Made by a program: the position numbers and the translations under genes
Notes under the pieces: model-generated
The model's input: the letters and a program-made list of their open reading frames with translations, nothing else
The model's database searches: none
Told to the model about the DNA's origin: nothing
Shown here: in pieces, positions 3,443 to 63,520 of the stretch
How the letters are laid out: every line of letters starts with the position of its first letter
Numbering within the stretch: the stretch's first letter is position 1
Assembly (NCBI RefSeq): GCF_024223415.1
Contig: NZ_CP100500.1
Strand: one strand, 5' to 3'
Source: Escherichia coli
GTDB taxonomy: Bacteria > Pseudomonadota > Gammaproteobacteria > Enterobacterales > Enterobacteriaceae
Length of the DNA: 64,000 nucleotides

Positions 3443-4343
<901 letters not shown>

Positions 4344-10429: not shown

Positions 10430-10458
10430 CAACAGTCCTTATTAATGAGAAATCCTTC

Positions 10459-12165: not shown

Positions 12166-12174
12166 CTTCTGTCC

Positions 12175-15460: not shown

Positions 15461-15464
15461 CTCA

Positions 15465-16115
15465 TTATCCCTTCAGCGCGGTCAAGTTGTTCACGTCCAG
15501 CGTGCCGTGGGTACGCCATATTTTTCTTGCCAGTAACACCATCACAATGACGGCGAAGATGGCGTCGGTAGCGATACCTATTTCCACCAGTTCCGGTGCT
15601 CGCCAGGCAAGAAGCGCCAGCACCAGATGGGAGCCGTTTTCCATCAGGCAGTAACCAAAAATTTGCCGCAGGATATTGCGCTGGCTGACAATGCACAGCA
15701 GGCCAAGCAGAAAATGACCTAACGCCACCGCCAGCGCCGGTTTCAGCCCGGTAGCCATCGGTAGCTTCACGGGCTGAACGACAAATGCGCAAAGCAGGAC
15801 AATTAACGCCGCGAGCAGTGCCATCATTGCCGGACCGAATAACGCTTTTTCCGGGATGTTCTGGGGAATATTTCGTGCAGCGTAAGTCATGATTAACGGT
15901 ACCAGCAGCACTTTGGTGATAAAGGCGCTGGCGGACCAGATCAGCAGTTGCTCTGCGGCGAACAGGCACGAGAGAGTGGCGAAAATAGACACCAGCACCA
16001 GCGACTGGCAGACGTAAAATCCGCATGACAGGCGATAGCTTTTGACGCTAATCACAAACAGCGATGTCAGCATCATCAGTCCCGCCAGATTATTTACGAT
16101 CGTAGAACCGGTCAT
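15465..16115 (-). CDS. hyfE: hydrogenase-4 membrane subunit E
   Basis: 216-aa hydrophobic ORF in operon context. Confidence 0.85.
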
Positions 16116-16126
16116 TCATCATCTCC

Positions 16127-17566: not shown

Positions 17567-17582
17567 ATTCCGTCAGTGCTCC

Positions 17583-18530
17583 TTACAGACCGGTTAACCA
17601 GAAGACCCATGCAAGCGCAGCAAGGCTGAAGCCAAGCCAGGTCACATGGTGAATGAGTAAAAAACGCCCGCGTGCCAGCGTGTTTTCTGCGATAGAGGCC
17701 AGAACAAAAATCAGCAAAACCTTGAGCAGCGTAACGACAAGTGAAGTCAGCAGGCAGGCGAGAGAAAGTTCTTGCGCGCGCCCAAAGGGCAGAAACAGGG
17801 CCACAAACAGTGCTGCCATCACGACCTGTTTCAGCCCCAGCCCCCATTTCGCTAGCGCCAGCCCGGCACCGGAATATTCTGTCAGCGGGCCTTCCTGTAA
17901 TTCCTGTTCTGCTTCAGCAACATCAAAGGGAATTTTTCCCATCTCAATGAAGCAGGCAAAACCACAGGCCAGTAACGCCAGTACGGTGGTTAGCGGCGAG
18001 TTCCAGCCCGTTGCCAGCGTATTGCTGATCATCTCGATATGCGTGGAACCTGCTATCAGCGCCAATACCAGCAGTGAGAGAATGAGCATGGGTTCGACCA
18101 GAATGCCGAGCGTCAACTCGCGACTGGCACCGACTCCCGCAAACGGGCTTCCGGTATCCAGCCCTGAAAGAGCAAAGAAAAAACGAAACAGGGCAAGAAG
18201 ATAGATAAGGGTGATCAGATCGCCGCCGCCCGCAAAAGGGGAAACGGTAATAAATAGTGGTAGGGCCATCGCCAGCACCAGCATGCTGCTGATTAATACC
18301 CACGGCATCAGGCGGAACATCAGACCTGAAGATGTCGGCGCAACTTCCTGCCGTTTAAACAGTTTGTGGATATCGCGATAATCCTGCCAGATCCCCGGTC
18401 CGCGGCGGGAGTGCATTCGCGCGCGTATCTGCCGGGAAATACCCGTAAAAAGTGGGGTTAGCATCAGCAGAATCACGGCCTGTGCTAACTCAAAAATGAC
18501 CAGATATCCGTCGCAAAGAGTTTGTCTCAT
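17583..18530 (-). CDS. hyfC: hydrogenase-4 membrane subunit (NuoH-like)
   Basis: ORF track 17583..18551; likely start at MRQTLCDGYL giving 315 aa. Confidence 0.85.
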   Translation of the reverse strand: MRQTLCDGYLVIFELAQAVILLMLTPLFTGISRQIRARMHSRRGPGIWQDYRDIHKLFKRQEVAPTSSGLMFRLMPWVLISSMLVLAMALPLFITVSPFAGGGDLITLIYLLALFRFFFALSGLDTGSPFAGVGASRELTLGILVEPMLILSLLVLALIAGSTHIEMISNTLATGWNSPLTTVLALLACGFACFIEMGKIPFDVAEAEQELQEGPLTEYSGAGLALAKWGLGLKQVVMAALFVALFLPFGRAQELSLACLLTSLVVTLLKVLLIFVLASIAENTLARGRFLLIHHVTWLGFSLAALAWVFWLTGL

Positions 18531-18540
18531 GGTGATTTCC

Positions 18541-20559
18541 TTAGACGGCAATAGCGATTAGCAGCACAACCAGTGCGGCGACCACATACAGGCAATAGAG
18601 ACGAAAGTCGCCGCTTTGCAGATGCTGTATTTCTTTGGCCAGCCGTTGGGTGGCGCTCACGATGGGGCGGATCACCCGCTCATCCCAGAAGGGTTCTGTG
18701 CTCTGAGCCCTGGCGGTGACGTGCGCAAGACCTTTATTTAGCCTCAGCGTAGGGTCGAGCTGTTGTCGTAGACGAAATAGCGCAGAGAAGACCACACGCA
18801 GCGGCTGCATCACGCCATTGCCTGACGGGGCCATCGCATTTTCCCAGCCGTAGCCGCATGCCCAGGCATCTCCTGTGCGACGAAACGCTGCGCGGCGCGA
18901 ACGACACCACAGCCAGTAAAGGCCAGGCAGCAAAGGCATCGCCAGTAGTAACAGCAACAGTAATGAGGGGGTGACCTGTGTATGAAACGTGCCGGGTACA
19001 AGTGCTATTCCGCTGGCGACAGTGACGGGAGGGGTATTGGTAAACGCATGGGCAATATGCATTATCTTCGGTGCCAGCCAACTGGCACTAAGCGCAATTA
19101 ATACGCAGAGTGCCGCGAGCAGTAGCATGGCGACGATCATCGTATTTGGCACTTCCTGTGCCTCTTCAGCGTGTGTACTGCGCGGCGCACCACAGAAAGT
19201 AATACCGTACATTTTGACGAAGCACATTACTGCCAGCCCACCAGTGACTGCCAGCATCACCATAGCAATAGGACCCGCAAGTTGTAGCGCTACGGCTTCC
19301 ACACGACTTAGTGAGAACAGCGACTGCCAGGTGTACCATTCGCTGATAAAACCATTCAGCGGAGGAAGGGCTGATATCGCGAGGCAACCAATCAGGCATG
19401 CTGCGGCTGTCCACGGCATCCGTTTTGCCAGTGCCCCCATTTTTTCCATGTCGTGGGTATGCAAACGCGAAATAATCGCACCCGCGCCGAGAAATAGCAG
19501 CCCTTTGAACAGCGCATGGTTGAGCAGATGAAACAGTGCGCCGAGCAGTCCAACCACGGTGAGCAGCGGGTCGTGCAGTGACAGACCGACCATCGCCACA
19601 CCGACTGCCAGCAAAATAATGCCGACGTTTTCGACGGTACTCCAGGCCAGCAGCCGTTTGATATCCTGTTCCGCCAGCGCATATAGCACGCCCAGGAGCG
19701 CGGAGATTGCGCCGATCGCCATCACCAGAATGCCCCACCACAGAGGCAAACCCGTTTGCGCCAGCAGATCCATCGCTACTTTCAGGATGCCGAAAATACC
19801 GATTTTGACCATTACGCCAGACATCAACGCCGAAGCGTGCGATGGTGCGGCAGGGTGAGCGCGCGGCAACCAGCTGTGCAACGGCATCATCCCGGCTTTC
19901 GCGCCAAAACCGAAAAAGGCCAGCAGGAACACCGCCGACGCCAGCCCCGGAGAAAGTGAAAGCGTGCGGAAACTGGCAAAATCTAGGCTGCCGCTTTCGC
20001 GCCCCATCAGCAAGAAGGCGATCATAATCAGCACCGATCCGGCGTGGGCGATAAAAAAGTAGAGCATGCCAGCGTTGATCGACGTTTTATCCTGCCTGGC
20101 AATGACCAGAAACCAGGAAGACAGCGACATCATTTCAAACAGCACGATGAACCAAAAAGCGTTGTCCATCACCAGCAGGGCAACCATCGATGCGATGAAA
20201 ATATTCATAAAGAAGCCCATCGCCGCCGCGCCTTTGCCCTCGTATTCGCGCATATAAGTCAATGAATAGAGCGAACAAACCACCACCAGCAAGGAGATAA
20301 CCAGCACCATAAATGCCGAGAGGCTATCCATTCGCAGGGTTAAATCGGCAAAGTCAAAAGGGGTGGCAAAACGGGCGACTAAAGTTACGCCTGCATGTAA
20401 TTGCGTAATTCCGCTGATGATGCCAATCACGCCGCCCACCAGCGATGTGATGCCGGAAAGCTTAATAGCCAGTCTGTCCAGACCGAGTAAAAACAGCGAA
20501 GCCAGACTGGCAAACAGATAGAGGATCAGCGACCAGGTTAATAATTGCAGGGCATCCAT
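18541..20559 (-). CDS. hyfB: hydrogenase-4 membrane subunit (NuoL-like)
   Basis: 672-aa polytopic membrane ORF. Confidence 0.9.
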   Translation of the reverse strand: MDALQLLTWSLILYLFASLASLFLLGLDRLAIKLSGITSLVGGVIGIISGITQLHAGVTLVARFATPFDFADLTLRMDSLSAFMVLVISLLVVVCSLYSLTYMREYEGKGAAAMGFFMNIFIASMVALLVMDNAFWFIVLFEMMSLSSWFLVIARQDKTSINAGMLYFFIAHAGSVLIMIAFLLMGRESGSLDFASFRTLSLSPGLASAVFLLAFFGFGAKAGMMPLHSWLPRAHPAAPSHASALMSGVMVKIGIFGILKVAMDLLAQTGLPLWWGILVMAIGAISALLGVLYALAEQDIKRLLAWSTVENVGIILLAVGVAMVGLSLHDPLLTVVGLLGALFHLLNHALFKGLLFLGAGAIISRLHTHDMEKMGALAKRMPWTAAACLIGCLAISALPPLNGFISEWYTWQSLFSLSRVEAVALQLAGPIAMVMLAVTGGLAVMCFVKMYGITFCGAPRSTHAEEAQEVPNTMIVAMLLLAALCVLIALSASWLAPKIMHIAHAFTNTPPVTVASGIALVPGTFHTQVTPSLLLLLLLAMPLLPGLYWLWCRSRRAAFRRTGDAWACGYGWENAMAPSGNGVMQPLRVVFSALFRLRQQLDPTLRLNKGLAHVTARAQSTEPFWDERVIRPIVSATQRLAKEIQHLQSGDFRLYCLYVVAALVVLLIAIAV

Positions 20560-21176
20560 TAGCGTTGCTCCTGAGTGAGGGAAAGGGGATCCTCCCCGCC
20601 ATTGGCAAACCAGCTTGCGGCAAGGCGCTGTTTTTCTTTCATCTGACGTTGCAGGCTATCGTCGGTGATCAGCCGTAACGCCTGATTCGGGCAAGCGCGA
20701 ACGCAGGCCGGACCTTCTGGCAAGAAATCACACAGGTCGCATTTCACCGCGACGGTCTGGACACCCGGTTCCCAGCGCAGCAAAGCATGTTGTGTTGGCG
20801 CGTTTTCTTCGCCGTCTTTGAGTGAGCCTTCAGCCTGAAAAACATATTGCGCAGGGGCATTCACCGGACGGCTTCCTGAAGCGCTGATTGCGCCAAATGG
20901 GCAGACCACGGCGCAAAGCTTGCAGCCAATACAGAGGCTTTCGTTGAGTTGGATCGCATCATCCCTCTGGGAGATGGCATTGACCGGGCAGACCTGCAGG
21001 CAAGGGGCTTCCTCACAGTGATGACACACGACAGGGGCAGTGAGTGTTGACGTCTTCGCCAGGGCCAGGCGCGGGTGTTGCTGTAAACCTTGCGTTTTAT
21101 GCACGTCCGAACAGGCAGCGAGACAGGTATTACATCCTGTACACCACAGTGGTTCGGCCACCACAAAGCGGTTCAT
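20559..21176 (-). CDS. hyfA: hydrogenase-4 ferredoxin-type subunit (4x Fe-S cluster motifs)
   Basis: ORF track 20559..21215; likely start at MNRFVVAEPL giving 205 aa; multiple CxxCxxCxxxC motifs. Confidence 0.85.
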   Translation of the reverse strand: MNRFVVAEPLWCTGCNTCLAACSDVHKTQGLQQHPRLALAKTSTLTAPVVCHHCEEAPCLQVCPVNAISQRDDAIQLNESLCIGCKLCAVVCPFGAISASGSRPVNAPAQYVFQAEGSLKDGEENAPTQHALLRWEPGVQTVAVKCDLCDFLPEGPACVRACPNQALRLITDDSLQRQMKEKQRLAASWFANGGEDPLSLTQEQR

Positions 21177-21300
21177 GTCGGCTCCTTGAAAATGATATGA
21201 AACATTGCATTTCATATTGCATAAAGGATGCTAGTCTGATTAATTTAATATATTCAATAAGTTATGAGTTAACTGGATTCTGAGCGGTACAAAAATGATG
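21177..21300 (-). promoter_or_regulatory. hyf operon upstream control region (promoter not pinpointed)
   Basis: AT-rich leader with tandem ATGCAAT repeats 30-50 bp upstream of hyfA; the operon is reported to be sigma54/HyfR dependent but I could not find a convincing GG-N10-GC element. Confidence 0.3.
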
Positions 21301-21428
21301 GTCATTAACGTTCAGCAAAAAATGGATTCGACACCCGTGTCGCAGGGGAAAGTGAGAATGTGATCTTGGTCACGAGAAGTGAGGTGTGCTGACCACAAGC
21401 GCAGCCAGCACGGAATGGAGCAAAGTAA

Positions 21429-21899
21429 TCAGGCGTGTTCTTTCAGCCAGTTCAGCACAACGTCGTGGTGATTGCTGGTTTTGAAATCGTCAAAGACATG
21501 TTCGATTTTGCCATCAGCGTCAATCAGGAAGCTGATGCGATGAATACCATCGTAGGTTTTGCCCATGAAGGACTTTTCCCCCCAGACGCCGAATTGTTCG
21601 CACACCTGGTGGTCCTCATCAGACAGGAGCGTAAAGTTAAGCAGCTCTTTTTCCGCAAAACGGGAGAGTTTTTCGGGTTTATCGGTGCTGATACCCAGCA
21701 CATCAACGCCCGCTTTTTTCAACTCATCCATGTTATCGCGTAAGCCGCAGGCCTGTACGGTACAGCCGGGGGTCATGGCTTTCGGGTAGAAATAAACCAG
21801 AACACGCTGTCCCTGGAAGTCGGTCAAATTAACTTGTTCTCCGTCTTGATCCGGCAAGCTAAATTTCGGTGCGGTATCACCGGCTTTCAGTGGATTCAT
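21429..21899 (-). CDS. bcp: thiol peroxidase (peroxiredoxin)
   Basis: 156-aa ORF with peroxidatic PGCT motif; start overlaps gcvR stop by 1 nt (TAATG). Confidence 0.9.
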   Translation of the reverse strand: MNPLKAGDTAPKFSLPDQDGEQVNLTDFQGQRVLVYFYPKAMTPGCTVQACGLRDNMDELKKAGVDVLGISTDKPEKLSRFAEKELLNFTLLSDEDHQVCEQFGVWGEKSFMGKTYDGIHRISFLIDADGKIEHVFDDFKTSNHHDVVLNWLKEHA

Positions 21900-22471
21900 T
21901 ACTTAACTCCATCCTGTTCATCATGTTGGGAATAATTGACGACGTTAATACTGCCTTGTGCATTGAGTTCTGTACATAGGGCTTTGAACGCTTGCTCAAT
22001 ATTTGCTGCGTCCGCAGATGCGGGGCTGTGGGCGGTGATCTGAATATGCAACTGCGCAGCCCGTTCATTTTCAGCAGGTTGCGTGCGCGACACCAGCTCC
22101 GCAATGTTCATATGATGCGCGTCGAAAAGTGCTGTGAAGCGTTCAATTAAATGCGGGGAGTCTGCCACATCGACCTGAACCCAGACAGATGCTGGCATTG
22201 GCGGACGCGGACGCGCCGTCGTGCGCTTCATCACGATTAAAAGATCCAGTTCTGCACCTTTCAACGGTAACGTTGATTCAATCAGAGTGATGGCATTCCA
22301 TGAACCGGAAAGCAGCATGATAAACGTGAACTCTTCTCCCAGCATCGCCAGGCGACTGTCTTCAATATTACAGCCGCAACTACTGACATGACGGGTGATG
22401 GTGTTCACAATTCCAGGGCGATCGGCACCCAACGCAGTGATCACCAGATAATGTTGCGATGACAGTGTCAA
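21899..22471 (-). CDS. gcvR: glycine cleavage system transcriptional repressor (ACT domains)
   Basis: ORF track 21899..22537; the GcvR N-terminus (..TLSSQHYLVITALG) begins at a TTG codon preceded by AAGGAA, giving 190 aa. Confidence 0.8.
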   Translation of the reverse strand: MTLSSQHYLVITALGADRPGIVNTITRHVSSCGCNIEDSRLAMLGEEFTFIMLLSGSWNAITLIESTLPLKGAELDLLIVMKRTTARPRPPMPASVWVQVDVADSPHLIERFTALFDAHHMNIAELVSRTQPAENERAAQLHIQITAHSPASADAANIEQAFKALCTELNAQGSINVVNYSQHDEQDGVK

Positions 22472-22616
22472 ACTGGTTATTCCTTTAAGGGGTGAGTTGT
22501 TCTTAAGGAAAGCATAAAAAAAACATGCATACAACAATCAGAACGGTTCTGTCTGCTTGCTTTTAATGCCATACCAAACGTACCATTGAGACACTTGTTT
22601 GCACAGAGGATGGCCC

Positions 22617-23495
22617 ATGTTCACGGGAAGTATTGTCGCGATTGTTACTCCGATGGATGAAAAAGGTAATGTCTGTCGGGCTAGCTTGAAAAAACTGATT
22701 GATTATCATGTCGCCAGCGGTACTTCGGCGATCGTTTCTGTTGGCACCACTGGCGAGTCCGCTACCTTAAATCATGACGAACATGCTGATGTGGTGATGA
22801 TGACGCTGGAGCTGGCTGACGGGCGCATTCCGGTGATTGCCGGGACCGGTGCTAACGCTACTGCGGAAGCCATTAGCCTGACGCAGCGCTTCAATGACAG
22901 TGGTATCGTCGGCTGCCTGACGGTAACCCCTTACTACAATCGTCCGTCGCAAGAAGGTTTGTATCAGCATTTCAAAGCCATCGCTGAGCATACTGACCTG
23001 CCGCAAATTCTGTATAATGTGCCGTCCCGTACTGGCTGCGATCTGCTCCCGGAAACGGTGGGCCGTCTGGCGAAAGTAAAAAATATTATCGGAATCAAAG
23101 AGGCAACAGGGAACTTAACGCGTGTAAACCAGATCAAAGAGCTGGTTTCAGATGATTTTGTTCTGCTGAGCGGCGATGATGCGAGCGCGCTGGACTTCAT
23201 GCAATTAGGCGGTCATGGGGTTATTTCCGTTACGGCTAACGTCGCAGCGCGTGATATGGCCCAGATGTGCAAACTGGCAGCAGAAGGGCATTTTGCCGAG
23301 GCACGCGTTATTAATCAGCGTCTGATGCCATTACACAACAAACTATTTGTCGAACCCAATCCAATCCCGGTGAAATGGGCATGTAAGGAACTGGGTCTTG
23401 TGGCGACCGATACGCTGCGCCTGCCAATGACACCAATCACCGACAGTGGTCGTGAGACGGTCAGAGCGGCGCTTAAGCATGCCGGTTTGCTGTAA
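22617..23495 (+). CDS. dapA: 4-hydroxy-tetrahydrodipicolinate synthase
   Basis: ORF track 22599..23495; likely start at [10 protein letters not shown] giving 292 aa. Confidence 0.9.
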
Positions 23496-23511
23496 AGTTT
23501 AGGGAGATTTG

Positions 23512-24546
23512 ATGGCTTACTCTGTTCAAAAGTCGCGCCTGGCAAAGGTTGCGGGTGTTTCGCTTGTTTTATTACTCGCTGCCTGTAGTTCTGACTCACG
23601 CTATAAGCGTCAGGTCAGTGGTGATGAAGCCTACCTGGAAGCGGCACCGCTTGCGGAGCTTCATGCCCCGGCTGGAATGATTTTGCCGGTGACCTCCGGT
23701 GATTATGCAATCCCGGTGACCAACGGTAGTGGTGCTGTCGGTAAGGCGCTGGACATTCGTCCACCAGCCCAGCCGCTGGCACTAGTTTCTGGCGCGCGTA
23801 CCCAGTTCACGGGCGATACCGCTTCATTGCTGGTGGAAAATGGTCGTGGCAATACTCTGTGGCCGCAGGTGGTTAGCGTGCTGCAGGCGAAAAACTACAC
23901 CATCACCCAACGTGATGATGCTGGTCAGACACTGACCACCGATTGGGTACAATGGAACCGTCTGGACGAAGACGAGCAGTATCGTGGTCGTTATCAAATC
24001 TCTGTTAAGCCGCAGGGTTATCAGCAGGCGGTTACGGTTAAACTGCTGAACCTGGAACAGGCGGGCAAACCGGTTGCAGACGCGGCTTCCATGCAGCGTT
24101 ACAGCACGGAGATGATGAACGTTATTTCCGCTGGTCTGGATAAATCTGCCACTGACGCCGCGAACGCTGCGCAAAATCGTGCCTCCACCACTATGGACGT
24201 ACAAAGTGCAGCTGATGACACCGGTTTACCAATGCTGGTCGTACGCGGGCCGTTCAATGTGGTTTGGCAACGTCTGCCAGCGGCGCTGGAAAAAGTGGGC
24301 ATGAAAGTGACCGACAGCACCCGTTCGCAGGGCAACATGGCCGTAACTTATAAGCCGCTGTCTGACAGCGACTGGCAGGAACTGGGCGCGAGCGATCCAG
24401 GCCTGGCATCCGGTGACTATAAACTGCAGGTTGGCGATTTAGATAACCGCAGCAGCCTACAGTTCATCGATCCGAAAGGTCATACTCTGACTCAGAGTCA
24501 GAACGACGCGCTGGTAGCTGTCTTCCAGGCTGCGTTTAGCAAGTAA
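23512..24546 (+). CDS. bamC: outer-membrane lipoprotein of the BAM complex
   Basis: 344-aa ORF with lipoprotein signal peptide and LAAC lipobox. Confidence 0.9.
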
Positions 24547-24552
24547 AAATAC

Positions 24553-24580
24553 AGGGCTGGAATCATCCGGCCCTTTTTTC
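24553..24580 (+). terminator. rho-independent terminator after bamC
   Basis: agggctgg...ccggccct stem followed by T6. Confidence 0.6.
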
Positions 24581-24650
24581 TGATATGATACGCAAACGTG
24601 TGCGTCGGCAGGAAAACGCGATTTTAGCGGTAATTCGCACGAAATTTGTT

Positions 24651-24706
<56 letters not shown>

Positions 24707-24758
24707 ACCAGACAGCAAAAGATTTTAAAACGTTAATTCACACCCAGGAGTGATAAAG

Positions 24759-25472
24759 ATGCAAAAGCAAGCTGAGTTGTATCGTGGTAAAGCGAAAACC
24801 GTATACAGCACGGAAAACCCGGACCTGTTGGTGCTCGAATTCCGCAATGATACGTCAGCAGGGGATGGCGCGCGCATTGAGCAGTTTGATCGCAAAGGTA
24901 TGGTGAACAACAAGTTCAACTACTTCATTATGAGCAAACTGGCTGAAGCGGGTATCCCGACTCAAATGGAGCGTCTGCTCTCCGATACCGAATGTCTGGT
25001 GAAAAAGCTGGATATGGTACCGGTTGAGTGTGTCGTGCGTAACCGTGCTGCTGGCTCTCTGGTGAAACGTCTTGGAATCGAAGAAGGTATTGAGCTGAAC
25101 CCGCCGCTGTTCGATCTGTTCCTGAAAAACGACGCCATGCACGATCCGATGGTCAACGAATCTTACTGCGAAACCTTTGGCTGGGTAAGCAAAGAGAACC
25201 TGGCACGCATGAAAGAGCTGACCTACAAAGCGAACGACGTGCTGAAAAAACTGTTCGATGATGCTGGTCTGATTCTGGTCGACTTCAAGCTGGAGTTTGG
25301 TCTGTACAAAGGCGAAGTGGTACTGGGTGATGAGTTCTCCCCGGACGGTAGCCGCCTGTGGGACAAAGAAACGCTGGAGAAAATGGACAAAGACCGTTTC
25401 CGCCAGAGCCTCGGTGGCCTGATCGAGGCCTATGAAGCCGTCGCCCGCCGCCTGGGTGTACAGCTGGACTGA
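24759..25472 (+). CDS. purC: SAICAR synthetase
   Basis: ORF track 24750..25472; likely start [10 protein letters not shown] giving 237 aa. Confidence 0.9.
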
Positions 25473-25493
25473 TTTTTCTGGTTGCTTGTTTAT

Positions 25494-25519
25494 TTAGCCG
25501 GAGGGTACTCCGGCTAAAT
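25494..25519 (+). terminator. perfect 11-bp-stem hairpin after purC (terminator-like, no T-run)
   Basis: tttagccggag-ggta-ctccggctaaa. Confidence 0.45.
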
Positions 25520-25560
25520 GTCTTCGATACCCCCGCTACAATACTTCGCATTATCTCCCT

Positions 25561-25608
25561 TTGACAGGAAAGTAATAACAGGCCAATATGTATATACATG
25601 ACGTATAT
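25561..25608 (+). promoter_or_regulatory. putative vapBC promoter and operator
   Basis: TTGACA at 25561..25566, 17-bp spacer, CAATAT at 25584..25589; perfect 12-bp palindrome ATGTATATACAT at 25588..25599 overlapping the -10 and putative start site; GTATAT repeated again at 25602..25608. Confidence 0.45.
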
Positions 25609-25626
25609 CCCAAAAAAGGGGGGGCT

Positions 25627-25854
25627 ATGGAAACTACTGTATTTTTAAGTAATCGCAGTCAGGCCGTCAGATTACCGAAAGCGGTCGCTCTGCCAGAGGA
25701 TGTTAAGAAAGTAGAAATTATTGCGATTGGTCGTACAAGAATCATCACTCCCGCCGGTGAGTCCTGGGACAGTTGGTTTGATGGCGAAAATGTGAGTGCG
25801 GATTTTATGGATATCCGTGATCAACCCGCAATGCAGGAAAGGGAATCATTCTGA
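25627..25854 (+). CDS. vapB: VapB-type antitoxin (AbrB/SpoVT fold)
   Basis: 75-aa product METTVFLSNRSQAVRLPKAVALPEDVKK... closely resembles VapB/MvpA antitoxins as I recall them; preceded by a G-rich RBS; stop overlaps the toxin start (TGATG). Confidence 0.8.
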   Translation: METTVFLSNRSQAVRLPKAVALPEDVKKVEIIAIGRTRIITPAGESWDSWFDGENVSADFMDIRDQPAMQERESF

Positions 25855-52767: not shown

Positions 52768-53604
52768 ATGGCGCACGACGAACAATGGCTCACCCCACGT
52801 CTGCAAACAGCGGCAACGCTGTGTAACCAGACGCCCGCCGCGACGGAATCTCCGCTGTGGCTGGGGGTGGATCTGGGCACCTGCGATGTGGTGTCGATGG
52901 TTGTCGACCGCGACGGTCAGCCAGTGGCGGTATGCCTCGACTGGGCCGATGTGGTTCGCGACGGCATCGTCTGGGATTTCTTCGGCGCGGTCACCATTGT
53001 TCGTCGCCATCTCGACACGCTCGAGCAGCAATTCGGTCGCCGTTTTAGCCATGCGGCGACTTCATTTCCTCCAGGTACGGACCCGCGTATTTCCATCAAC
53101 GTGCTGGAGTCTGCTGGACTGGAAGTGAGCCATGTGCTGGATGAGCCAGCCGCAGTCGCGGATCTGCTGCAACTGGACAACGCCGGTGTAGTGGATATCG
53201 GCGGCGGCACTACCGGCATTGCCATCGTGAAAAAGGGCAAGGTGACGTACTCGGCGGATGAAGCAACCGGCGGACATCACATCTCTCTGACTCTCGCCGG
53301 AAATCGCCGTATTTCGCTGGAAGAGGCAGAGCAGTACAAGCGCGGTCACGGTGACGAGATTTGGCCCGCGGTGAAACCGGTGTACGAAAAAATGGCGGAC
53401 ATTGTCGCCCGGCATATTGAAGGGCAGGGCATTACTGATTTATGGCTGGCGGGCGGCTCCTGTATGCAACCGGGCGTGGCAGAACTGTTTCGCAAACAAT
53501 TCCCGGCGTTACAGGTGCATTTACCGCAGCACAGTTTGTTTATGACCCCGCTGGCGATCGCCAGTAGTGGGCGAGAGAAAGCGGAGGGGCTATATGCAAA
53601 ATGA
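52768..53604 (+). CDS. eutJ: Hsp70/actin-fold Eut chaperone-like protein
   Basis: 278-aa ORF. Confidence 0.85.
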   Translation: MAHDEQWLTPRLQTAATLCNQTPAATESPLWLGVDLGTCDVVSMVVDRDGQPVAVCLDWADVVRDGIVWDFFGAVTIVRRHLDTLEQQFGRRFSHAATSFPPGTDPRISINVLESAGLEVSHVLDEPAAVADLLQLDNAGVVDIGGGTTGIAIVKKGKVTYSADEATGGHHISLTLAGNRRISLEEAEQYKRGHGDEIWPAVKPVYEKMADIVARHIEGQGITDLWLAGGSCMQPGVAELFRKQFPALQVHLPQHSLFMTPLAIASSGREKAEGLYAK

Positions 53605-54781
53605 ATTGCAGACCGCGCTCTTTCAGGCGTTCGATACCCTGAATCTGCAACGGGTAAAAACATTTAGCGTTCCACCGGTGACGCTTTGCGGTCCGGGCTC
53701 GGTGAGCAGTTGCGGACAGCAAGCGCAAACGCGTGGGCTGAAACATCTGTTCGTGATGGCAGACAGCTTTTTGCATCAGGCAGGGATGACCGCCGGGCTG
53801 ACGCGTAGCCTGGCCGTTAAAGGTATCGCCATGACGCTCTGGCCATGTCCGGTGGGCGAACCGTGCATTACCGACGTGTGTGCAGCCGTGGCGCAGTTGC
53901 GTGAGTCAGGTTGTGACGGGGTGATCGCATTTGGCGGCGGCTCGGTGCTGGATGCGGCGAAAGCCGTGGCGTTGCTGGTGACGAACCCGGATAGCACGCT
54001 GGCAGAGATGTCAGAAACCAGCGTTCTGCAACCGCGCTTGCCGCTGATTGCCATTCCAACTACCGCCGGAACCGGCTCTGAAACCACCAATGTAACGGTG
54101 ATTATCGACGCGGTGAGCGGGCGCAAGCAGGTGTTAGCCCATGCCTCGCTGATGCCGGATGTGGCGATCCTCGACGCCGCATTGACCGAAGGTGTGCCGT
54201 CGCATGTCACGGCGATGACCGGCATTGATGCGTTAACCCATGCCATTGAAGCATACAGCGCCCTGAACGCTACACCGTTTACCGACAGTCTGGCGATTGG
54301 TGCCATTGCGATGATTGGCAAATCGCTGCCGAAAGCGGTGGGCTACGGTCACGACCTTGCCGCGCGCGAGAGCATGTTGCTGGCTTCATGTATGGCGGGA
54401 ATGGCGTTTTCCAGTGCGGGTCTTGGGTTGTGCCACGCGATGGCGCATCAGCCGGGCGCGGCGCTGCATATTCCACACGGTCTCGCGAACGCTATGTTGC
54501 TGCCAACGGTGATGGAGTTTAACCGGATGGTTTGTCGTGAACGCTTTAGTCAGATTGGTCGGGCACTGCGAACTAAAAAATCCGACGATCGTGACGCTAT
54601 TAACGCGGTAAGTGAGCTGATTGCGGAAGTTGGGATTGGTAAACGACTGGGCGATGTTGGCGCGACATCTGCGCATTACGGTGCATGGGCGCAGGCCGCG
54701 CAGGAAGATATTTGTCTGCGCAGCAACCCGCGTACCGCCAGCCTGGAACAGATTGTCGGCCTGTACGCAGCGGCGCAATAA
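53594..54781 (+). CDS. eutG: iron-containing alcohol dehydrogenase
   Basis: ORF track 53567..54781; likely start MQNELQTALF giving 395 aa. Confidence 0.85.
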   Translation: MQNELQTALFQAFDTLNLQRVKTFSVPPVTLCGPGSVSSCGQQAQTRGLKHLFVMADSFLHQAGMTAGLTRSLAVKGIAMTLWPCPVGEPCITDVCAAVAQLRESGCDGVIAFGGGSVLDAAKAVALLVTNPDSTLAEMSETSVLQPRLPLIAIPTTAGTGSETTNVTVIIDAVSGRKQVLAHASLMPDVAILDAALTEGVPSHVTAMTGIDALTHAIEAYSALNATPFTDSLAIGAIAMIGKSLPKAVGYGHDLAARESMLLASCMAGMAFSSAGLGLCHAMAHQPGAALHIPHGLANAMLLPTVMEFNRMVCRERFSQIGRALRTKKSDDRDAINAVSELIAEVGIGKRLGDVGATSAHYGAWAQAAQEDICLRSNPRTASLEQIVGLYAAAQ

Positions 54782-54800
54782 ATGCCGGATGCGACGCATG

Positions 54801-56233
<1,433 letters not shown>

Positions 56234-56236
56234 ATG

Positions 56237-56300
56237 TCGCGTCTTATCCGGCCTACGGGATTGCACATGTAGAGCGGATAAAGCGTTCACGCCGCATCCG
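56237..56300. repeat. BIME: right half of the interrupted PU plus a second complete REP/PU
   Basis: tcgcgtcttatccggcctacg then gcggataaagcgttcacgccgcatccgc. Confidence 0.7.
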
Positions 56301-56333: not shown

Positions 56334-57559
56334 ATGGGAATTAACGAAATCATCATGTACATCATGATGTTCTTTATGCTGATAGCTGCCGTAGACAGGA
56401 TCCTGTCGCAGTTCGGCGGTTCTGCTCGTTTCCTCGGTAAGTTCGGTAAAAGTATCGAAGGATCAGGCGGTCAGTTCGAAGAAGGCTTTATGGCAATGGG
56501 CGCTCTGGGTCTGGCGATGGTCGGTATGACCGCGCTGGCACCGGTACTGGCTCACGTACTCGGGCCGGTAATTATCCCGGTTTACGAAATGCTCGGCGCA
56601 AACCCGTCAATGTTCGCCGGAACGCTGCTGGCGTGCGATATGGGCGGCTTCTTCCTCGCCAAAGAGCTGGCGGGCGGCGACGTAGCCGCGTGGCTATACT
56701 CTGGGTTAATTCTCGGGTCGATGATGGGGCCAACGATTGTGTTTTCCATTCCGGTGGCGCTCGGCATTATCGAACCTTCTGACCGTCGTTATCTGGCGCT
56801 CGGCGTGCTGGCGGGCATTGTGACCATTCCGATTGGTTGTATCGCTGGTGGTCTGGTAGCTATGTACTCCGGTGTGCAGATCAACGGCCAGCCGGTGGAA
56901 TTCACTTTCGCCCTGATCCTGATGAACATGATCCCGGTGATCATTGTTGCGATTCTGGTGGCGCTGGGGCTGAAATTCATCCCGGAAAAAATGATCAACG
57001 GCTTCCAGATCTTCGCCAAATTCCTCGTTGCATTGATCACCCTCGGTCTTGCCGCTGCGGTAGTGAAATTCCTGCTTGGCTGGGAACTGATCCCCGGTCT
57101 GGATCCTATCTTTATGGCCCTGGCGATAAACCCGGTGAGGTGATGCGCGCCATTGAAGTTATCGGTTCTATCTCCTGCGTTCTGTTAGGGGCGTATCCGA
57201 TGGTGCTGCTGCTGACCCGCTGGTTTGAAAAACCGCTGATGAGCGTCGGTAAAGTGCTGAATATGAACAACATCGCGGCAGCCGGCATGGTGGCAACGCT
57301 TGCCAACAACATCCCGATGTTCGGCATGATGAAGCAGATGGATACCCGCGGCAAAGTCATCAACTGCGCCTTCGCCGTTTCTGCTGCTTTCGCCCTGGGC
57401 GACCACTTAGGCTTCGCCGCTGCCAACATGAATGCCATGATCTTCCCGATGATTGTCGGCAAGTTGATCGGCGGCGTAACGGCGATTGGCGTGGCGATGA
57501 TGCTGGTGCCAAAAGACGACGCGGCCGCAGCTAAAACCGAAGCGGAGGCACAATCGTGA
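56334..57559 (+). pseudogene. eutH: ethanolamine permease gene with an apparent 1-nt deletion frameshift
   Basis: EutH-like membrane protein is split into a 269-aa ORF (56334..57143) and an overlapping +1-frame ORF ending at 57559; total span is 1226 nt, one short of the 1227 nt needed for the 408 aa plus stop that I recall for EutH; frames switch between about 57090 and 57143. Confidence 0.6.
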
Positions 57560-58959
57560 ACACTCGCCAGCTACTGAGCGTCGGTATCGATATCGGCACC
57601 ACCACCACTCAGGTGATTTTCTCCCACCTGGAACTGGTTAACCGTGCGGCGGTGTCGCAGGTGCCGCGCTACGAATTCATCAAACGCGAAATTAGCTGGC
57701 AAAGCCCGGTGTTCTTTACCCCTGTCGATAAACAGGGTGGTTTAAAAGAAGCGGAACTGAAATCGCTGATTTTAGAGCAATATCAGGCTGCGGGCATTGC
57801 GCCGGAAAGCGTTGATTCTGGTGCCATCATCATCACCGGTGAAAGCGCGAAAACCCGCAATGCTCGCCCGGCGGTGATGGCGCTCTCTCAGTCGCTGGGC
57901 GATTTTGTCGTCGCCAGCGCCGGGCCGCACCTCGAATCCGTGATCGCCGGTCACGGAGCCGGGGCACAAACCCTTTCTGAACAACGGCTGTGTCGGGTAC
58001 TGAATATCGACATTGGCGGTGGCACCGCGAACTACGCCCTGTTCGATGCCGGAAAAATCAGCGGCACTGCCTGCCTCAACGTCGGTGGTCGCCTGCTGGA
58101 AACCGACAGCCAGGGGCGCGTGGTTTACGCTCATAAACCGGGGCAGATGATTGTGGATGAGTGCTTCGGCGCAGGCACCGACGCCCGTTCGCTGACCGGC
58201 GCGCAGCTGGTGCAGGTTACCCGGCGGATGGCAGAGCTGATTGTCGAAGTGATTGACGGAACGCTCTCGCCGCTCGCGCAGGCATTAATGCAAACCGGTT
58301 TGCTCCCCGCAGGTGTTACGCCCGAAATCATTACGCTTTCTGGCGGCGTGGGCGAATGTTATCGCCACCAGCCCGCCGACCCGTTCTGTTTTGCCGATAT
58401 TGGCCCACTTCTGGCAACGGCGCTGCATGACCATCCGCGCCTGCGTGAGATGAATGTGCAGTTTCCGGCGCAAACCGTACGCGCCACGGTGATTGGCGCG
58501 GGGGCACATACCCTTTCGCTCTCTGGCAGCACAATCTGGCTGGAGGGCGTACAACTGCCGCTGCGCAATTTGCCGGTGGCGATCCCGATTGATGAAACGG
58601 ATCTGGTGGGTGCCTGGCAACAGGCGCTGATTCAGCTGGATCTTGATCCCAAAACTGACGCGTACGTGCTGGCGCTTCCCGCCTCGCTGCCTGTGCGTTA
58701 CGCCGCGGTACTGACGGTCATCAACGCGTTGGTCGATTTCGTCGCGCGTTTTCCGAATCCGCATCCCCTGCTGGTGGTGGCCGGGCAGGACTTTGGTAAA
58801 GCTCTGGGCATGTTGTTGCGCCCACAGCTACAACAACTCCCGTTGGCAGTCATTGACGAAGTGATTGTCCGCGCGGGGGACTATATCGACATTGGTACGC
58901 CTCTTTTTGGCGGATCGGTTGTGCCGGTGACGGTGAAATCACTCGCATTTCCTTCCTGA
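57556..58959 (+). CDS. eutA: ethanolamine ammonia-lyase reactivase
   Basis: 467-aa ORF MNTRQLLSVGIDIGTTTTQV... Confidence 0.9.
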   Translation: MNTRQLLSVGIDIGTTTTQVIFSHLELVNRAAVSQVPRYEFIKREISWQSPVFFTPVDKQGGLKEAELKSLILEQYQAAGIAPESVDSGAIIITGESAKTRNARPAVMALSQSLGDFVVASAGPHLESVIAGHGAGAQTLSEQRLCRVLNIDIGGGTANYALFDAGKISGTACLNVGGRLLETDSQGRVVYAHKPGQMIVDECFGAGTDARSLTGAQLVQVTRRMAELIVEVIDGTLSPLAQALMQTGLLPAGVTPEIITLSGGVGECYRHQPADPFCFADIGPLLATALHDHPRLREMNVQFPAQTVRATVIGAGAHTLSLSGSTIWLEGVQLPLRNLPVAIPIDETDLVGAWQQALIQLDLDPKTDAYVLALPASLPVRYAAVLTVINALVDFVARFPNPHPLLVVAGQDFGKALGMLLRPQLQQLPLAVIDEVIVRAGDYIDIGTPLFGGSVVPVTVKSLAFPS

Positions 58960-58970
58960 GGGAACGACTT

Positions 58971-60332
58971 ATGAAACTAAAGACCACATTGTTCGGCAAT
59001 GTATATCAGTTTAAGGATGTAAAAGAGGTGCTGGCTAAAGCCAACGAACTGCGTTCGGGGGATGTGCTGGCAGGCGTTGCAGCGGCAAGTTCACAGGAGC
59101 GCGTGGCGGCAAAGCAGGTGTTGTCGGAAATGACCGTAGCGGACATCCGCAATAATCCGGTGATTGCCTATGAAGATGACTGCGTGACGCGGCTGATTCA
59201 GGACGATGTTAACGAAACGGCCTACAACCAGATTAAAAACTGGAGCATCAGCGAACTGCGTGAGTATGTGCTGAGCGATGAAACCAGCGTGGACGACATT
59301 GCCTTTACCCGCAAAGGGCTGACCTCGGAAGTGGTCGCGGCGGTAGCGAAGATTTGCTCCAACGCGGACCTGATCTACGGCGCGAAGAAAATGCCGGTAA
59401 TCAAAAAGGCCAATACCACCATCGGTATTCCGGGCACCTTCAGCGCCCGTTTGCAGCCAAATGACACTCGTGACGACGTGCAAAGTATCGCCGCGCAAAT
59501 CTACGAAGGGCTTTCCTTCGGGGTGGGCGATGCGGTGATCGGCGTTAACCCGGTGACTGACGACGTGGAAAACTTAAGCCGCGTGCTGGATACCATTTAT
59601 GGCGTGATCGACAAATTCAACATCCCAACTCAGGGCTGCGTACTGGCGCACGTCACCACCCAGATCGAAGCGATTCGTCGCGGCGCGCCTGGCGGACTGA
59701 TTTTCCAGAGTATCTGTGGCAGCGAAAAAGGGCTGAAAGAGTTTGGCGTGGAACTGGCGATGCTCGACGAAGCGCGCGCAGTGGGCGCAGAGTTCAACCG
59801 TATCGCCGGGGAAAACTGCCTCTACTTCGAAACCGGACAAGGCTCTGCGCTATCCGCTGGCGCTAACTTCGGCGCTGACCAGGTGACGATGGAAGCACGT
59901 AACTATGGGCTGGCGCGTCATTACGATCCGTTTATCGTCAACACCGTGGTCGGTTTTATTGGGCCGGAGTATCTCTACAACGACCGCCAGATTATCCGTG
60001 CTGGCTTAGAAGATCACTTTATGGGCAAGCTGAGCGGCATCTCTATGGGCTGTGACTGCTGTTACACCAACCACGCTGACGCTGACCAGAACCTCAACGA
60101 AAACCTGATGATCCTGCTCGCCACCGCAGGCTGCAACTACATCATGGGGATGCCGTTGGGTGATGACATCATGCTCAACTACCAGACCACCGCATTCCAC
60201 GATACCGCCACTGTGCGTCAGTTACTCAACCTGCGCCCGTCACCGGAGTTTGAACGCTGGCTGGAAAGCATGGGCATTATGGCAAACGGTCGCCTGACCA
60301 AACGGGCGGGCGATCCGTCACTGTTCTTCTGA
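58971..60332 (+). CDS. eutB: ethanolamine ammonia-lyase large subunit
   Basis: 453-aa ORF. Confidence 0.9.
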   Translation: MKLKTTLFGNVYQFKDVKEVLAKANELRSGDVLAGVAAASSQERVAAKQVLSEMTVADIRNNPVIAYEDDCVTRLIQDDVNETAYNQIKNWSISELREYVLSDETSVDDIAFTRKGLTSEVVAAVAKICSNADLIYGAKKMPVIKKANTTIGIPGTFSARLQPNDTRDDVQSIAAQIYEGLSFGVGDAVIGVNPVTDDVENLSRVLDTIYGVIDKFNIPTQGCVLAHVTTQIEAIRRGAPGGLIFQSICGSEKGLKEFGVELAMLDEARAVGAEFNRIAGENCLYFETGQGSALSAGANFGADQVTMEARNYGLARHYDPFIVNTVVGFIGPEYLYNDRQIIRAGLEDHFMGKLSGISMGCDCCYTNHADADQNLNENLMILLATAGCNYIMGMPLGDDIMLNYQTTAFHDTATVRQLLNLRPSPEFERWLESMGIMANGRLTKRAGDPSLFF

Positions 60333-60352: not shown

Positions 60353-61240
60353 ATGGATCAAAAACAGATTGAAGAAATTGTACGCAGCGTGATGGCGTCA
60401 ATGGGACAAACGGCCCCCGCGCCGTCAGAAGCAAAGTGCGCCACTACCACCTGTGCGGCACCGGTGACCTCGGAAAGCTGCGCGCTGGATTTAGGTTCTG
60501 CGGAAGCAAAAGCGTGGATTGGTGTTGAAAACCCACATCGTGCGGATGTGTTAACAGAACTGCGTCGCAGCACCGTGGCCCGCGTTTGTACCGGTCGTGC
60601 CGGTCCGCGTCCGCGTACCCAGGCGCTGCTGCGTTTCCTGGCCGATCACTCTCGTTCGAAAGATACCGTACTTAAAGAAGTGCCGGAAGAGTGGGTGAAA
60701 GCGCAGGGCTTGCTGGAAGTACGCTCTGAAATTAGCGACAAAAATCTCTACCTGACTCGCCCGGATATGGGCCGCCGCCTGTGTGCAGAAGCTGTTGAAG
60801 CGCTGAAAGCGCAGTGTGTTGCCAATCCGGACGTGCAGGTCGTTATTTCTGATGGCCTGTCAACTGATGCGATCACCGTGAACTACGAAGAGATCCTGCC
60901 ACCGCTGATGGCGGGCCTGAAACAGGCCGGGCTGAAAGTCGGTACACCATTCTTTGTTCGTTATGGTCGCGTGAAGATTGAAGATCAGATCGGTGAGATC
61001 CTCGGCGCGAAAGTGGTGATCCTGCTGGTGGGCGAACGTCCGGGGTTGGGTCAGTCAGAAAGCCTCTCCTGCTACGCCGTTTACTCGCCACGTATGGCGA
61101 CCACCGTTGAGGCCGATCGCACCTGTATCTCTAACATTCACCAGGGCGGCACGCCGCCGGTTGAAGCCGCAGCCGTCATTGTGGATTTGGCGAAACGTAT
61201 GCTGGAGCAGAAAGCATCCGGCATCAACATGACCCGATAA
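60353..61240 (+). CDS. eutC: ethanolamine ammonia-lyase small subunit
   Basis: 295-aa ORF. Confidence 0.9.
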
Positions 61241-61249
61241 GGAGGCATC

Positions 61250-61909
61250 ATGCCAGCTTTAGATTTGATTCGACCGTCTGTCACCGCTATGCGGGTGATT
61301 GCCTCCGTTAACGCCGATTTTGCGCGTGAACTAAAATTGCCGCCGCATATTCGTAGCCTCGGTCTGATTTCTGCCGACTCCGATGACGTCACCTACATTG
61401 CCGCTGATGAAGCGACCAAGCAGGCGATGGTGGAAGTGGTGTATGGCCGCTCGCTGTATGCGGGAGCGGCACACGGCCCGTCACCGACTGCCGGTGAAGT
61501 GCTGATTATGCTTGGTGGGCCAAACCCGGCGGAAGTGCGTGCAGGTCTGGATGCGATGGTTGCGCATATTGAAAATGGCGCTGCTTTCCAGTGGGCTAAT
61601 GATGCGCAAGATACGGCATTCCTGGCACATGTAGTTTCGCGTACCGGTTCTTATCTCTCATCAACCGCCGGGATCACGCTTGGCGATCCGATGGCGTATC
61701 TGGTGGCACCGCCGCTGGAAGCGACCTACGGCATTGATGCAGCGTTGAAATCTGCCGACGTACAGCTGGTGACCTATGTCCCGCCACCGTCTGAAACCAA
61801 CTACTCGGCAGCATTTTTAACCGGTAGCCAGGCCGCGTGTAAAGCAGCCTGTAACGCCTTTACCGATGCAGTGCTGGAAATCGCGCGTAATCCAATCCAG
61901 CGTGCGTAA
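61250..61909 (+). CDS. eutL: BMC shell protein (tandem-domain pseudohexamer)
   Basis: 219-aa ORF. Confidence 0.9.
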
Positions 61910-61921
61910 TGGAGGTTGCCG

Positions 61922-62422
61922 ATGATCAATGCACTGGGATTGCTGGAAGTGGACGGCATGGTCGCTGCGATAGATGCAGCGGATGCCATGCTCAAAGCAG
62001 CTAACGTTCGTCTGCTCAGTCACGAAGTGCTTGACCCTGGTCGCTTAACGCTGGTGGTGGAAGGCGATCTGGCGGCGTGTCGTGCTGCGCTGGACGCAGG
62101 TTGTGCTGCCGCGATGCGTACCGGGCGTGTCATCAGCCGTAAGGAGATCGGTCGGCCAGACGATGACACCCAGTGGCTGGTTACTGGCTTTAACCGCCAG
62201 CCGAAGCAACCCGTAAAGGAACCCGACGCGCCAGTTATCGTCGCGGAATCTGCTGACGAGTTGTTGGCGCTGTTAACATCAGTACGTCAGGGAATGACGG
62301 CAGGAGAAGTGGCTGCCCACTTTGGCTGGCCGCTGGAAAAAGCCAGAAATGCGCTCGAACAGCTCTTTTCTGCCGGGACGTTACGTAAACGCAGTAGTCG
62401 TTATCGTCTCAAGCCCCATTAA
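61922..62422 (+). CDS. eutK: BMC shell protein with C-terminal HTH-like extension
   Basis: ORF track 61916..62422; likely start MINALGLLEV giving 166 aa. Confidence 0.85.
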   Translation: MINALGLLEVDGMVAAIDAADAMLKAANVRLLSHEVLDPGRLTLVVEGDLAACRAALDAGCAAAMRTGRVISRKEIGRPDDDTQWLVTGFNRQPKQPVKEPDAPVIVAESADELLALLTSVRQGMTAGEVAAHFGWPLEKARNALEQLFSAGTLRKRSSRYRLKPH

Positions 62423-62467
62423 CCTGTCGGAGGTGCCGGGTGTCCTACAACACCCGGCATTAACATC

Positions 62468-63520
62468 ATGAAAAAGACCCGTACAGCCAATTTGCACCAT
62501 CTTTATCATGAACCCTTACCCGAAAACCTGAAGCTCACGCCGAAGGTCGAAGTGGATAATGTTCATCAACGACAGACAACGGATGTCTATGAACATGCTT
62601 TAACGATTACCGCCTGGCAGCAGATTTACGATCAGCTGCATCCGGGCAAGTTTCATGGTGAATTTACGGAAATTCTACTCGATGATATTCAGGTTTTTCG
62701 TGAATACACCGGTCTGGCGCTGCGTCAGTCGTGTCTGGTCTGGCCGAACTCGTTCTGGTTTGGCATTCCGGCGACGCGCGGTGAGCAGGGATTTATCGGT
62801 TCGCAATGTCTGGGAAGCGCAGAAATAGCGACGCGCCCTGGTGGAACCGAGTTTGAATTAAGTACGCCGGACGATTACACGATCCTGGGCGTAGTGCTTT
62901 CTGAAGATGTCATCACCCGTCAGGCTAACTTTTTGCATAATCCGGATCGGGTATTACATATGCTGCGTAGCCAGTCGGCGCTGGAAGTGAAAGAGCAGCA
63001 TAAAGCCGCGCTGTGGGGCTTTGTCCAACAGGCGCTGGCGACGTTTTGCGAGAACCCGGAAAATCTCCATCAGCCTGCAGTGCGAAAAGTGCTGGGGGAT
63101 AATTTGCTAATGGCGATGGGGGCGATGCTCGAAGACGCGCAACCAATGGTGACGGCGGAAAGCATCAGTCATCAGAGTTACCGTAGATTACTTTCCCGCG
63201 CCCGTGAATATGTGCTGGAAAACATGTCCGAACCGGTGACGGTGCTGGATTTGTGTAATCAACTGCATGTCAGCCGCCGCACGCTACAAAACGCGTTTCA
63301 CGCTATTTTAGGCATTGGCCCAAACGCGTGGCTGAAACGCATTCGCCTGAACGCCGTGCGCCGCGAACTAATAAGCCCGTGGTCGCAAAGCACAACGGTA
63401 AAAGACGCCGCCATGCAGTGGGGATTCTGGCATCTGGGGCAATTTGCCACGGATTACCAGCAGCTGTTTGCCGAGAAGCCGTCGTTGACGTTGCATCAGC
63501 GGATGCGGGAATGGGGGTGA
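62468..63520 (+). CDS. eutR: AraC-family transcriptional activator of the eut operon
   Basis: 350-aa ORF with C-terminal AraC-type HTH. Confidence 0.9.

Follow-up and report, generated by a model that had tools for sequence, protein, structure and literature searches.

K-12-type genomes of Escherichia coli carry CPZ-55, a 6.8-kb element with intZ and yffL-yffS, in antisense orientation between eutA and eutB. In the stretch of DNA analyzed here (64 kb, referred to as the window) the two genes adjoin each other. A sequence-only reading had described this as unlike K-12 and had placed the K-12 cryptic prophage between the two genes. The locus raises the question whether the closed junction is a peculiarity of this strain or the usual state of the operon. 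Inspection of K-12-type loci confirmed this position of the prophage, and published work agrees (PMC6379469; PMC7617246; PMC6652756). We find that the adjacency of eutA and eutB is correct, ordinary and previously published.

The eutA-eutB junction is an unoccupied attachment site

The open reading frame list places eutA at 57556..58959 (+ strand, 467 aa) and eutB at 58971..60332 (+ strand, 453 aa), with the same eutA end and eutB start as had been read before. Both genes are intact, and the GTG start of eutA overlaps the eutH stop. EutA, the ethanolamine ammonia-lyase reactivating factor, matched the equivalog model NF007991 over residues 1-467 of 467 (1072.9 bits, cutoff 799). The NCTC10444 record, which is nearly identical, likewise names this gene eutA. 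EutB, the large subunit of ethanolamine ammonia-lyase, matched NF011649 with 664.7 bits (cutoff 554), and its protein accession, WP_000769961.1, is common to K-12 and NCTC10444. The eutC gene follows 20 nt downstream (EutC model NF003971, 339.6 bits).

The eutA-eutB spacer (58960..58970, + strand) is GGGAACGACTT. It measures 11 nt and not the 12 bp given earlier, which is the difference of two coordinates. Read through, the junction is ...TTCCTTCCTGA GGGAACGACTT ATGAAA..., and the spacer recurs unchanged at the K-12 attR and at the K-12 junction that has no prophage. GAGGGA, which overlaps both the eutA stop and the spacer, may act as a Shine-Dalgarno-like element, judged from its sequence. 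The tight spacing fits the operon, where the other spacers range from -4 to 45 nt, except for the gap that bears an insertion sequence. Searches of the entire 64-kb window gave no blastn match to CPZ-55 DNA or to the related element of strain TUM10008, and no tblastn match to an IntZ homologue. Together with the sequence itself and the alignments, these null results bear out that nothing is inserted between the two genes.

In K-12, CPZ-55 is inserted at the eutA stop codon, and the 8-bp sequence CTTCCTGA is found as a direct repeat on both flanks; the TUM10008 insert is likewise bordered by CTTCCTGA on both sides. CPZ-55 position, 8-bp duplication and a prevalence of about 8% have been reported (PMC6379469). 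In the alignment, the window junction consists of the K-12 attL flank on the left and the attR flank on the right, with the core CTTCCTGA present once (attB, 58952..58959, + strand), its last three bases being the eutA stop codon. The single copy thus marks an unoccupied attachment site. Compared to the CPZ-55 site of K-12 MG1655 and BW25113, the order of CTTCCTGA, GGGAACGACTT and the eutB ATG is identical, whereas the window contains neither intZ nor yff genes and has the core once instead of twice. With five copies of the 8-mer in the window (three on the + strand, two on the - strand), its presence alone is uninformative and it is the full-context alignment that identifies the site. For the same reason, and because the core is short, recognition must also use flanking sequence.

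In our reading, CTTCCTGA is the crossover core of a chromosomal site used by a family of elements with a tyrosine integrase (IntZ), of which CPZ-55 is one member. Integration doubles the 8-mer, and in this way the eutA stop codon, the 11-nt leader of eutB and its ribosome-binding site are all kept, while 6.8-10.7 kb of antisense foreign DNA parts eutA from eutB. In K-12, the insertion ends eutB induction and ethanolamine use (PMC7617246). BW25113 is Eut-minus with eutB uninduced, and a scarlessly cured eut+ strain was built by the authors (PMC7617246; PMC11334477). The lineage of the window has no IntZ-type element at this position. A literature search found no paper that pairs CPZ-55 with a phage satellite.

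The empty site is the norm in E. coli

Among the 5423 complete E. coli genomes that hold this junction, 4964 (91.5%) show it in one unbroken piece. In 405 genomes intZ adjoins eutB, 244 of them with the K-12-type junction (attL). The empty site is therefore the norm: roughly nine in ten complete genomes of E. coli have it, with K-12 standing out as an exception. As adjacency is the normal state, to call it unlike K-12 puts the emphasis the wrong way round. That description holds for CPZ-55-bearing K-12, but not for every K-12 stock. CPZ-55 is missing from the K-12 MG1655 record NZ_CP010439.1, whose junction agrees with that of the window at each of 111 nt, and a W3110 laboratory stock is reported to be eut+ and free of the insertion (PMC11334477). 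The K-12 reference is thus atypical at eut, and most E. coli, this strain included, keep eutA and eutB adjacent. The alignment with K-12 and other E. coli genomes that the earlier reading had proposed agreed base for base with the prophage-free K-12 junction.

The two prophage-free K-12 stocks also bear on a second reading of the empty junction, namely that an IntZ-type element once occupied the site in this lineage and was excised precisely by its integrase. A scarless loss has the same sequence as a site that was never occupied, and the MG1655 record has this very junction. Parsimony argues against such a loss, with 91.5% of the junction-holding genomes uninterrupted and no IntZ or CPZ-55 remnant anywhere in the window. 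The site is empty as well in NCTC10444 and SCU-316, the nearest relatives that turned up. The eut region of NCTC10444 is collinear with the window over 17.7 kb at 99.97% identity. The window is nevertheless distinct from the NCTC10444 assembly, from which it differs by scattered SNPs, two 1-nt deletions and one differently placed IS1397 copy. SCU-316 has an uninterrupted eut gene order and is 100% identical over a 1-kb junction query. We consider a former occupation very improbable. That an insert was lost by a collapsed or mis-joined contig is more improbable still, to the point of being negligible: nothing specific speaks for it except that the two single-base deletions relative to NCTC10444 hint at some sequence error, and against it stand the 17.7-kb collinearity, the SCU-316 match and the same junction in thousands of independent assemblies. 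We are almost certain that the eutA-eutB junction of the window is of the usual E. coli type, with a vacant attachment site, and no observation speaks against this structure. The anatomy, the boundaries, the genome frequencies and the independence of the insertion events at the locus are all observed.

IS1397 lies in a REP loop between eutG and eutH

The extra DNA elsewhere in the operon is an insertion sequence of the IS3 family, IS1397 (54802..56233, - strand, antisense to eut). It is 1432 bp long, with 25-nt terminal inverted repeats (TG...CA) that are 84% complementary and a two-frame transposase whose orfB matched NF033516 transpos_IS3 with 300 bits. NCTC10444 is annotated at the same position with an 'IS3-like element IS1397 family transposase, programmed frameshift'. 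The amount of inserted DNA had suggested IS2, but this annotation, the length of 1432 bp and the insertion into a REP ruled it out.

The boundaries of the element were set by comparison with the empty site of SCU-316. There, the intact REP hairpin has a 5-nt ATGTC loop and a folding energy of -12.9 kcal/mol (z = -4.2). In the window this REP, or palindromic unit, is split. On the left are the stem GCCGGATGCGACGC (54784..54797, + strand) and an imperfect loop copy, ATGC (54798-54801, + strand); on the right (56234..56252, + strand) are the second loop copy, ATGTC (56234-56238), and the right stem GCGTCTTATCCGGC. In NCTC10444, ATGTC flanks IS1397 on both sides, and the left copy of the window is short of one T. 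IS1397 is therefore located inside the 5-nt loop of the eutG-eutH REP, between genes, and interrupts none of the eut reading frames. The earlier claim that an insertion sequence disrupts the operon stands as far as its presence is concerned, but not with respect to the genes, on which any effect would be a polar one.

Specific insertion of IS1397 into REPs has been described (PMC1525189). In line with this, we take the element to target the loops of REP hairpins; its landing in the eutG-eutH REP doubled the loop. A second IS1397 copy in the window also resides in a REP loop, with the target site duplication GCAA. That one copy is placed differently in the window and in NCTC10444 is at most an indirect sign of transposition. 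Length, inverted repeats, two-frame transposase, REP-loop target and short duplication all resemble known IS1397, and nothing essential differs. The insertion type seen here was present in 5 of 5426 genomes, from several clinical and commensal lineages. Independent IS1397 insertions were found in BH100N, SK0189 and 1162C, with 3-nt duplications (TTG, TGC), in contrast to the whole 5-nt loop duplicated here and the 4 nt at the second copy. Counted as independent events, insertions of IS1397 into the eutG-eutH REP loop number three or more, all in one orientation and in unrelated lineages.

The rest of the operon, a frameshift in eutH and ethanolamine utilization

The gene order is eutS, eutP, eutQ, eutT, eutD (annotated pta), eutM, eutN, eutE, eutJ, eutG, eutH, eutA, eutB, eutC, eutL, eutK and eutR. 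The last gene upstream of IS1397, eutG (53594..54781, + strand), is intact, matched NF011998 with 890.2 bits and is 1188 nt long in NCTC10444. Likewise intact are eutC, eutL, eutK and eutR (60353..63520, + strand), as judged from NCBIfam equivalog matches and the NCTC10444 annotation. The gene order, with eutA followed by eutB, is that of the canonical 17-gene operon of Salmonella enterica LT2, E. coli Nissle 1917 and UPEC; it is common to Nissle and S. enterica (PMC7617246) and conserved in 47 UPEC strains (PMC6652756). Two features set the window apart from the canonical operon: IS1397 between eutG and eutH, and a eutH whose frame is shifted by 1 nt.

Aligned to its K-12 counterpart, eutH (56334..57559, + strand) lacks one nucleotide of a C run near position 57118 of the window, such that the first frame stops at 57143. 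The window differs here from NCTC10444 as well, and the deletion was private to it, being shared by no other complete genome searched. The two halves of the reading frame match positions 1-266 and 260-408 of the EutH profile. As the deletion is in a homopolymer, it could be an assembly error.

With 1.4 kb of untranslated antisense DNA in the operon, and with the eutH frameshift if it is real, we regard it as rather probable that expression of eutHABCLK suffers from polarity and that ethanolamine use is lowered or abolished. Insertion sequences exert polarity in operons through Rho-dependent termination, and long untranslated antisense inserts are classically polar. Antisense CPZ-55, moreover, blocks eutB induction in K-12 (PMC7617246). 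A somewhat less likely reading, which nevertheless has to be taken seriously, is that IS1397 is phenotypically silent, with transcription from the eutS promoter passing through it and the strain remaining Eut+. The eut reading frames flanking the element are intact and the REP target was already non-coding. Inside IS1397, a consensus scan of the eut strand returned a single terminator-like site at chance level, hence no convincing intrinsic terminator. The same insertion type is kept in several clinical and commensal lineages, but with no more than 5 of 5426 genomes having it, this is no evidence of neutrality. When the IS region was scanned for promoters and terminators, the counts were those of shuffled sequence and say nothing on polarity. 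While we favor a polar effect, the insertion and the possible frameshift mean in any case that ethanolamine utilization is not to be assumed from gene content alone.

The locus has little significance beyond careful annotation. The CPZ-55 site, its 8-bp duplication, a prevalence of about 8%, the Eut-minus phenotype that it causes and the specificity of IS1397 for REPs have all been published already. One might speculate that the eutG-eutH REP loop is a preferred or selected IS1397 target and that the insertion, together with the eutH frameshift in this calf-associated clone, marks an ethanolamine pathway in the course of being lost or tuned down, a convergent silencing of eut comparable to that by the K-12 prophage, but we find this improbable.

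Different mobile elements strike the eut locus

IntZ-type elements at the eutA/eutB site include a 'novel prophage' of UPEC U71, the TUM10008 element and a remnant in MDK9L1, which identifies the site as a recurrent integration target; none of the three is present in the window. The TUM10008 element uses the same core. It is 10.66 kb in size and has a different cargo, and its IntZ is 92% identical. A PHROGs scan assigned to it the integrase, an HNH endonuclease and DNA-binding proteins, and a 726-aa protein matched PHROGs families labelled tape-measure, which is too little to classify the element. The idea that eut was hit independently in different lineages is well supported by these IntZ elements with differing cargo and by the repeated IS1397 insertions, and TUM10008 adds a further case, with an IS421 insertion in its eutG.

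The eutA-eutB junction is an unoccupied attachment site

The genes eutA (57556-58959) and eutB (58971-60332) follow each other on the plus strand of the window. EutA is a 467-aa ORF that matches the NF007991 model over its full length with 1072.9 bits (cutoff 799), and EutB a 453-aa ORF that reaches 664.7 bits with NF011649 (cutoff 554). Profile matches place EutG and EutH upstream of this pair, and EutC, EutL, EutK and EutR downstream. The junction reads ...GCATTTCCTTCCTGA GGGAACGACTT ATGAAACTA... and contains no insert between the two genes. The sequence-only reading had described a 12-bp gap; the adjacency holds, while the spacer is 11 nt (58960-58970) and 12 is the coordinate difference. 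The remaining spacers in this stretch of the operon range from -4 to 45 nt, with the eutG-eutH gap of 1552 nt as the only exception.

That reading had also placed the prophage CPZ-55 between eutB and eutA of K-12. The K-12-type genome AML001_par has the order eutA, a small hypothetical ORF, yffS, yffR, yffQ, yffP, yffO, yffN, yffM, yffL, intZ and eutB, with all genes from yffS through intZ antisense. We aligned the window junction with both K-12 junctions and found that the K-12 element sits exactly behind the eutA stop codon and is flanked by the direct repeat CTTCCTGA. The left junction (attL) is ...TTCCTTCCTGA|ATGCGG, the right junction (attR) is ...GATTCTTCCTGA|GGGAACGACTTATG, and 6790 bp lie between the two core copies. 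Gene order and alignment agree with that placement. At the window junction the core is present once (58952-58959) and the sequence is uninterrupted, as had been claimed; the window therefore carries an unoccupied attB. Neither CPZ-55 DNA nor an IntZ homologue was found anywhere within the 64-kb window.

Not every K-12 stock has the prophage. NZ_CP010439.1, a 4.60-Mb genome labelled K-12 MG1655, is without CPZ-55; its eutA-eutB junction bears no scar and is identical to that of the window across the 111 nt aligned. A W3110 stock was reported to be eut+ (PMC11334477).

Adjacency of eutA and eutB is the rule in E. coli

Comparison was extended to 5426 complete E. coli genomes, a collection that abounds in K-12 laboratory derivatives. 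A 1-kb query centred on the window junction was matched in 5423 of them, and in 4964 of these (91.5%) as a single uninterrupted match, so that the two genes are contiguous in most genomes. Queries across the two K-12 junctions, eutA/yffS and intZ/eutB, were covered in 244 and 405 genomes, respectively. An IntZ-type element hence occupies the site in about 7.5% of the collection, and only about 60% of carriers have the K-12-type far end.

Other occupants were also found. TUM10008 carries a 10.66-kb element (9364-20021 of its locus) with the same core repeat and an integrase 92% identical to IntZ; its genes include one for an HNH endonuclease and one whose 726-aa product matches PHROG families that carry the label tape-measure. 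In MDK9L1, a remnant without integrase lies at the IntZ site (about 20500-25800 of its locus) and eutB is reduced to a short 3' fragment. Given the genome counts of each state and these other occupants, we conclude that adjacency is the rule and K-12 the exception. Both the observation and its interpretation in the sequence-only reading were correct. The window junction shows the locus in its normal state, and CPZ-55 is a textbook peculiarity of K-12 that was already known.

IS1397 has inserted repeatedly between eutG and eutH

The extra DNA in the eutG-eutH gap is IS1397 (54802-56233, 1432 bp), oriented opposite to eut and bounded by 25-nt terminal inverted repeats (TGAACTG...CAGTTCA). The orfB of this element scores 300 bits with the IS3 transposase model. 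A 2.5-kb query across this copy gave a one-piece match in only five genomes, the best being the calf isolate NCTC10444, where the IS is likewise annotated on the strand opposite to eut. The empty site of the close relative SCU-316, GCCGGATGCGACGC-ATGTC-GCGTCTTATCCGGC, is a typical REP/palindromic unit that folds into a hairpin with the 5-nt loop ATGTC (-12.9 kcal/mol, z = -4.2). In NCTC10444 this loop is duplicated, with one copy on each side of IS1397. The duplication is perfect there and imperfect in the window, with ATGC on the left (54798-54801) and ATGTC on the right (56234-56238), and the two REP stem halves flank the element. IS1397 is known to insert specifically into REP sequences (PMC1525189). 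From the empty site, the loop duplication and the flanking stem halves, we conclude that this copy is intergenic and lies within a REP loop, as would be expected of IS1397. The claim that an IS disrupts the operon elsewhere therefore stands as to position, within the operon; as to coding damage it goes too far, since IS1397 breaks none of the eut reading frames. The other IS1397 copies examined have shorter duplications, of 3-4 nt against 5 nt here.

BH100N, SK0189 and 1162C carry IS1397 in the same eutG-eutH REP loop and in the same orientation. The target duplication is TTG in BH100N, with 300 nt to the eutH start, TGC in SK0189 and 1162C, with 199 nt, and ATGTC in the window and NCTC10444, with 100 nt; two or three tandem REP pairs lie downstream in BH100N, SK0189 and 1162C. 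Because duplications and downstream REP arrays differ, at least three separate insertions have occurred. In the fifth genome, BH100 substr. MG2014, the match runs only from the IS into eutH, and a 'phosphate acyltransferase' instead of eutG is annotated beside the IS. The proposal that different mobile elements hit the eut locus independently is borne out by the IS1397 events, the IntZ elements, an IS421 inside eutG of TUM10008 and the truncated eutB of MDK9L1. Every independent hit has a mechanistic reason: the target is either the attB of an integrase or a REP.

Probable effect on the ethanolamine genes

Strain BW25113 does not grow on ethanolamine and forms no microcompartments; it induces eutS and eutR, and eutB remains uninduced (PMC7617246). 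Integration at the core leaves both the stop codon of eutA and the leader of eutB intact, and the harm in K-12 would come from kilobases of antisense DNA parting eutB-R from the main promoter. Polarity of insertion sequences is well established. By analogy with K-12, the 1.4 kb of untranslated, antisense IS1397 between eutG and eutH is likely polar on eutHABCLK via Rho-dependent termination, and expression downstream is probably reduced. On the eut strand of the IS, a consensus scan gave only a terminator-like site at the level of chance. A silent insertion, leaving these genes expressed as before, is conceivable and seems to us the less probable outcome.

Differences between the window and NCTC10444

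Over about 64 kb, the window and NCTC10444 differ by 17 substitutions and two 1-nt deletions, and are near-identical yet distinct. A second IS1397 copy (2912-4343), in the orientation opposite to the eut copy, lies between hda and arsC in the loop of a REP and is flanked by a duplication of 4 bp, GCAA. This copy is missing from NCTC10444, which instead carries one between ypfG and tkt, where the window has none. These differing positions suggest that IS1397 moved recently in this clone.

In the window, a run of C at about 57118 within eutH (56334-57559) is one base shorter (CCCC to CCC); this 1-nt deletion splits the gene by frameshift, the first frame ending at 57143. The extra C is present in NCTC10444 and K-12, and none of the matches listed, of 5409 matching genomes, shares the deletion (best listed 99.8% identical, 442 nt versus 441 in the query). 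Either the mutation is private to this genome or the homopolymer was wrongly assembled.

The window hyfF (13880-15460, minus strand) is a full-length 526-aa ORF, and that of NCTC10444 is annotated as a pseudogene missing the C-terminus; at 13881, inside the stop codon, the window has T and NCTC10444 has G. A vapB/vapC toxin-antitoxin pair is annotated in NCTC10444 at the place matching about 25.6-26.3 kb of the window (purC-ypfJ).
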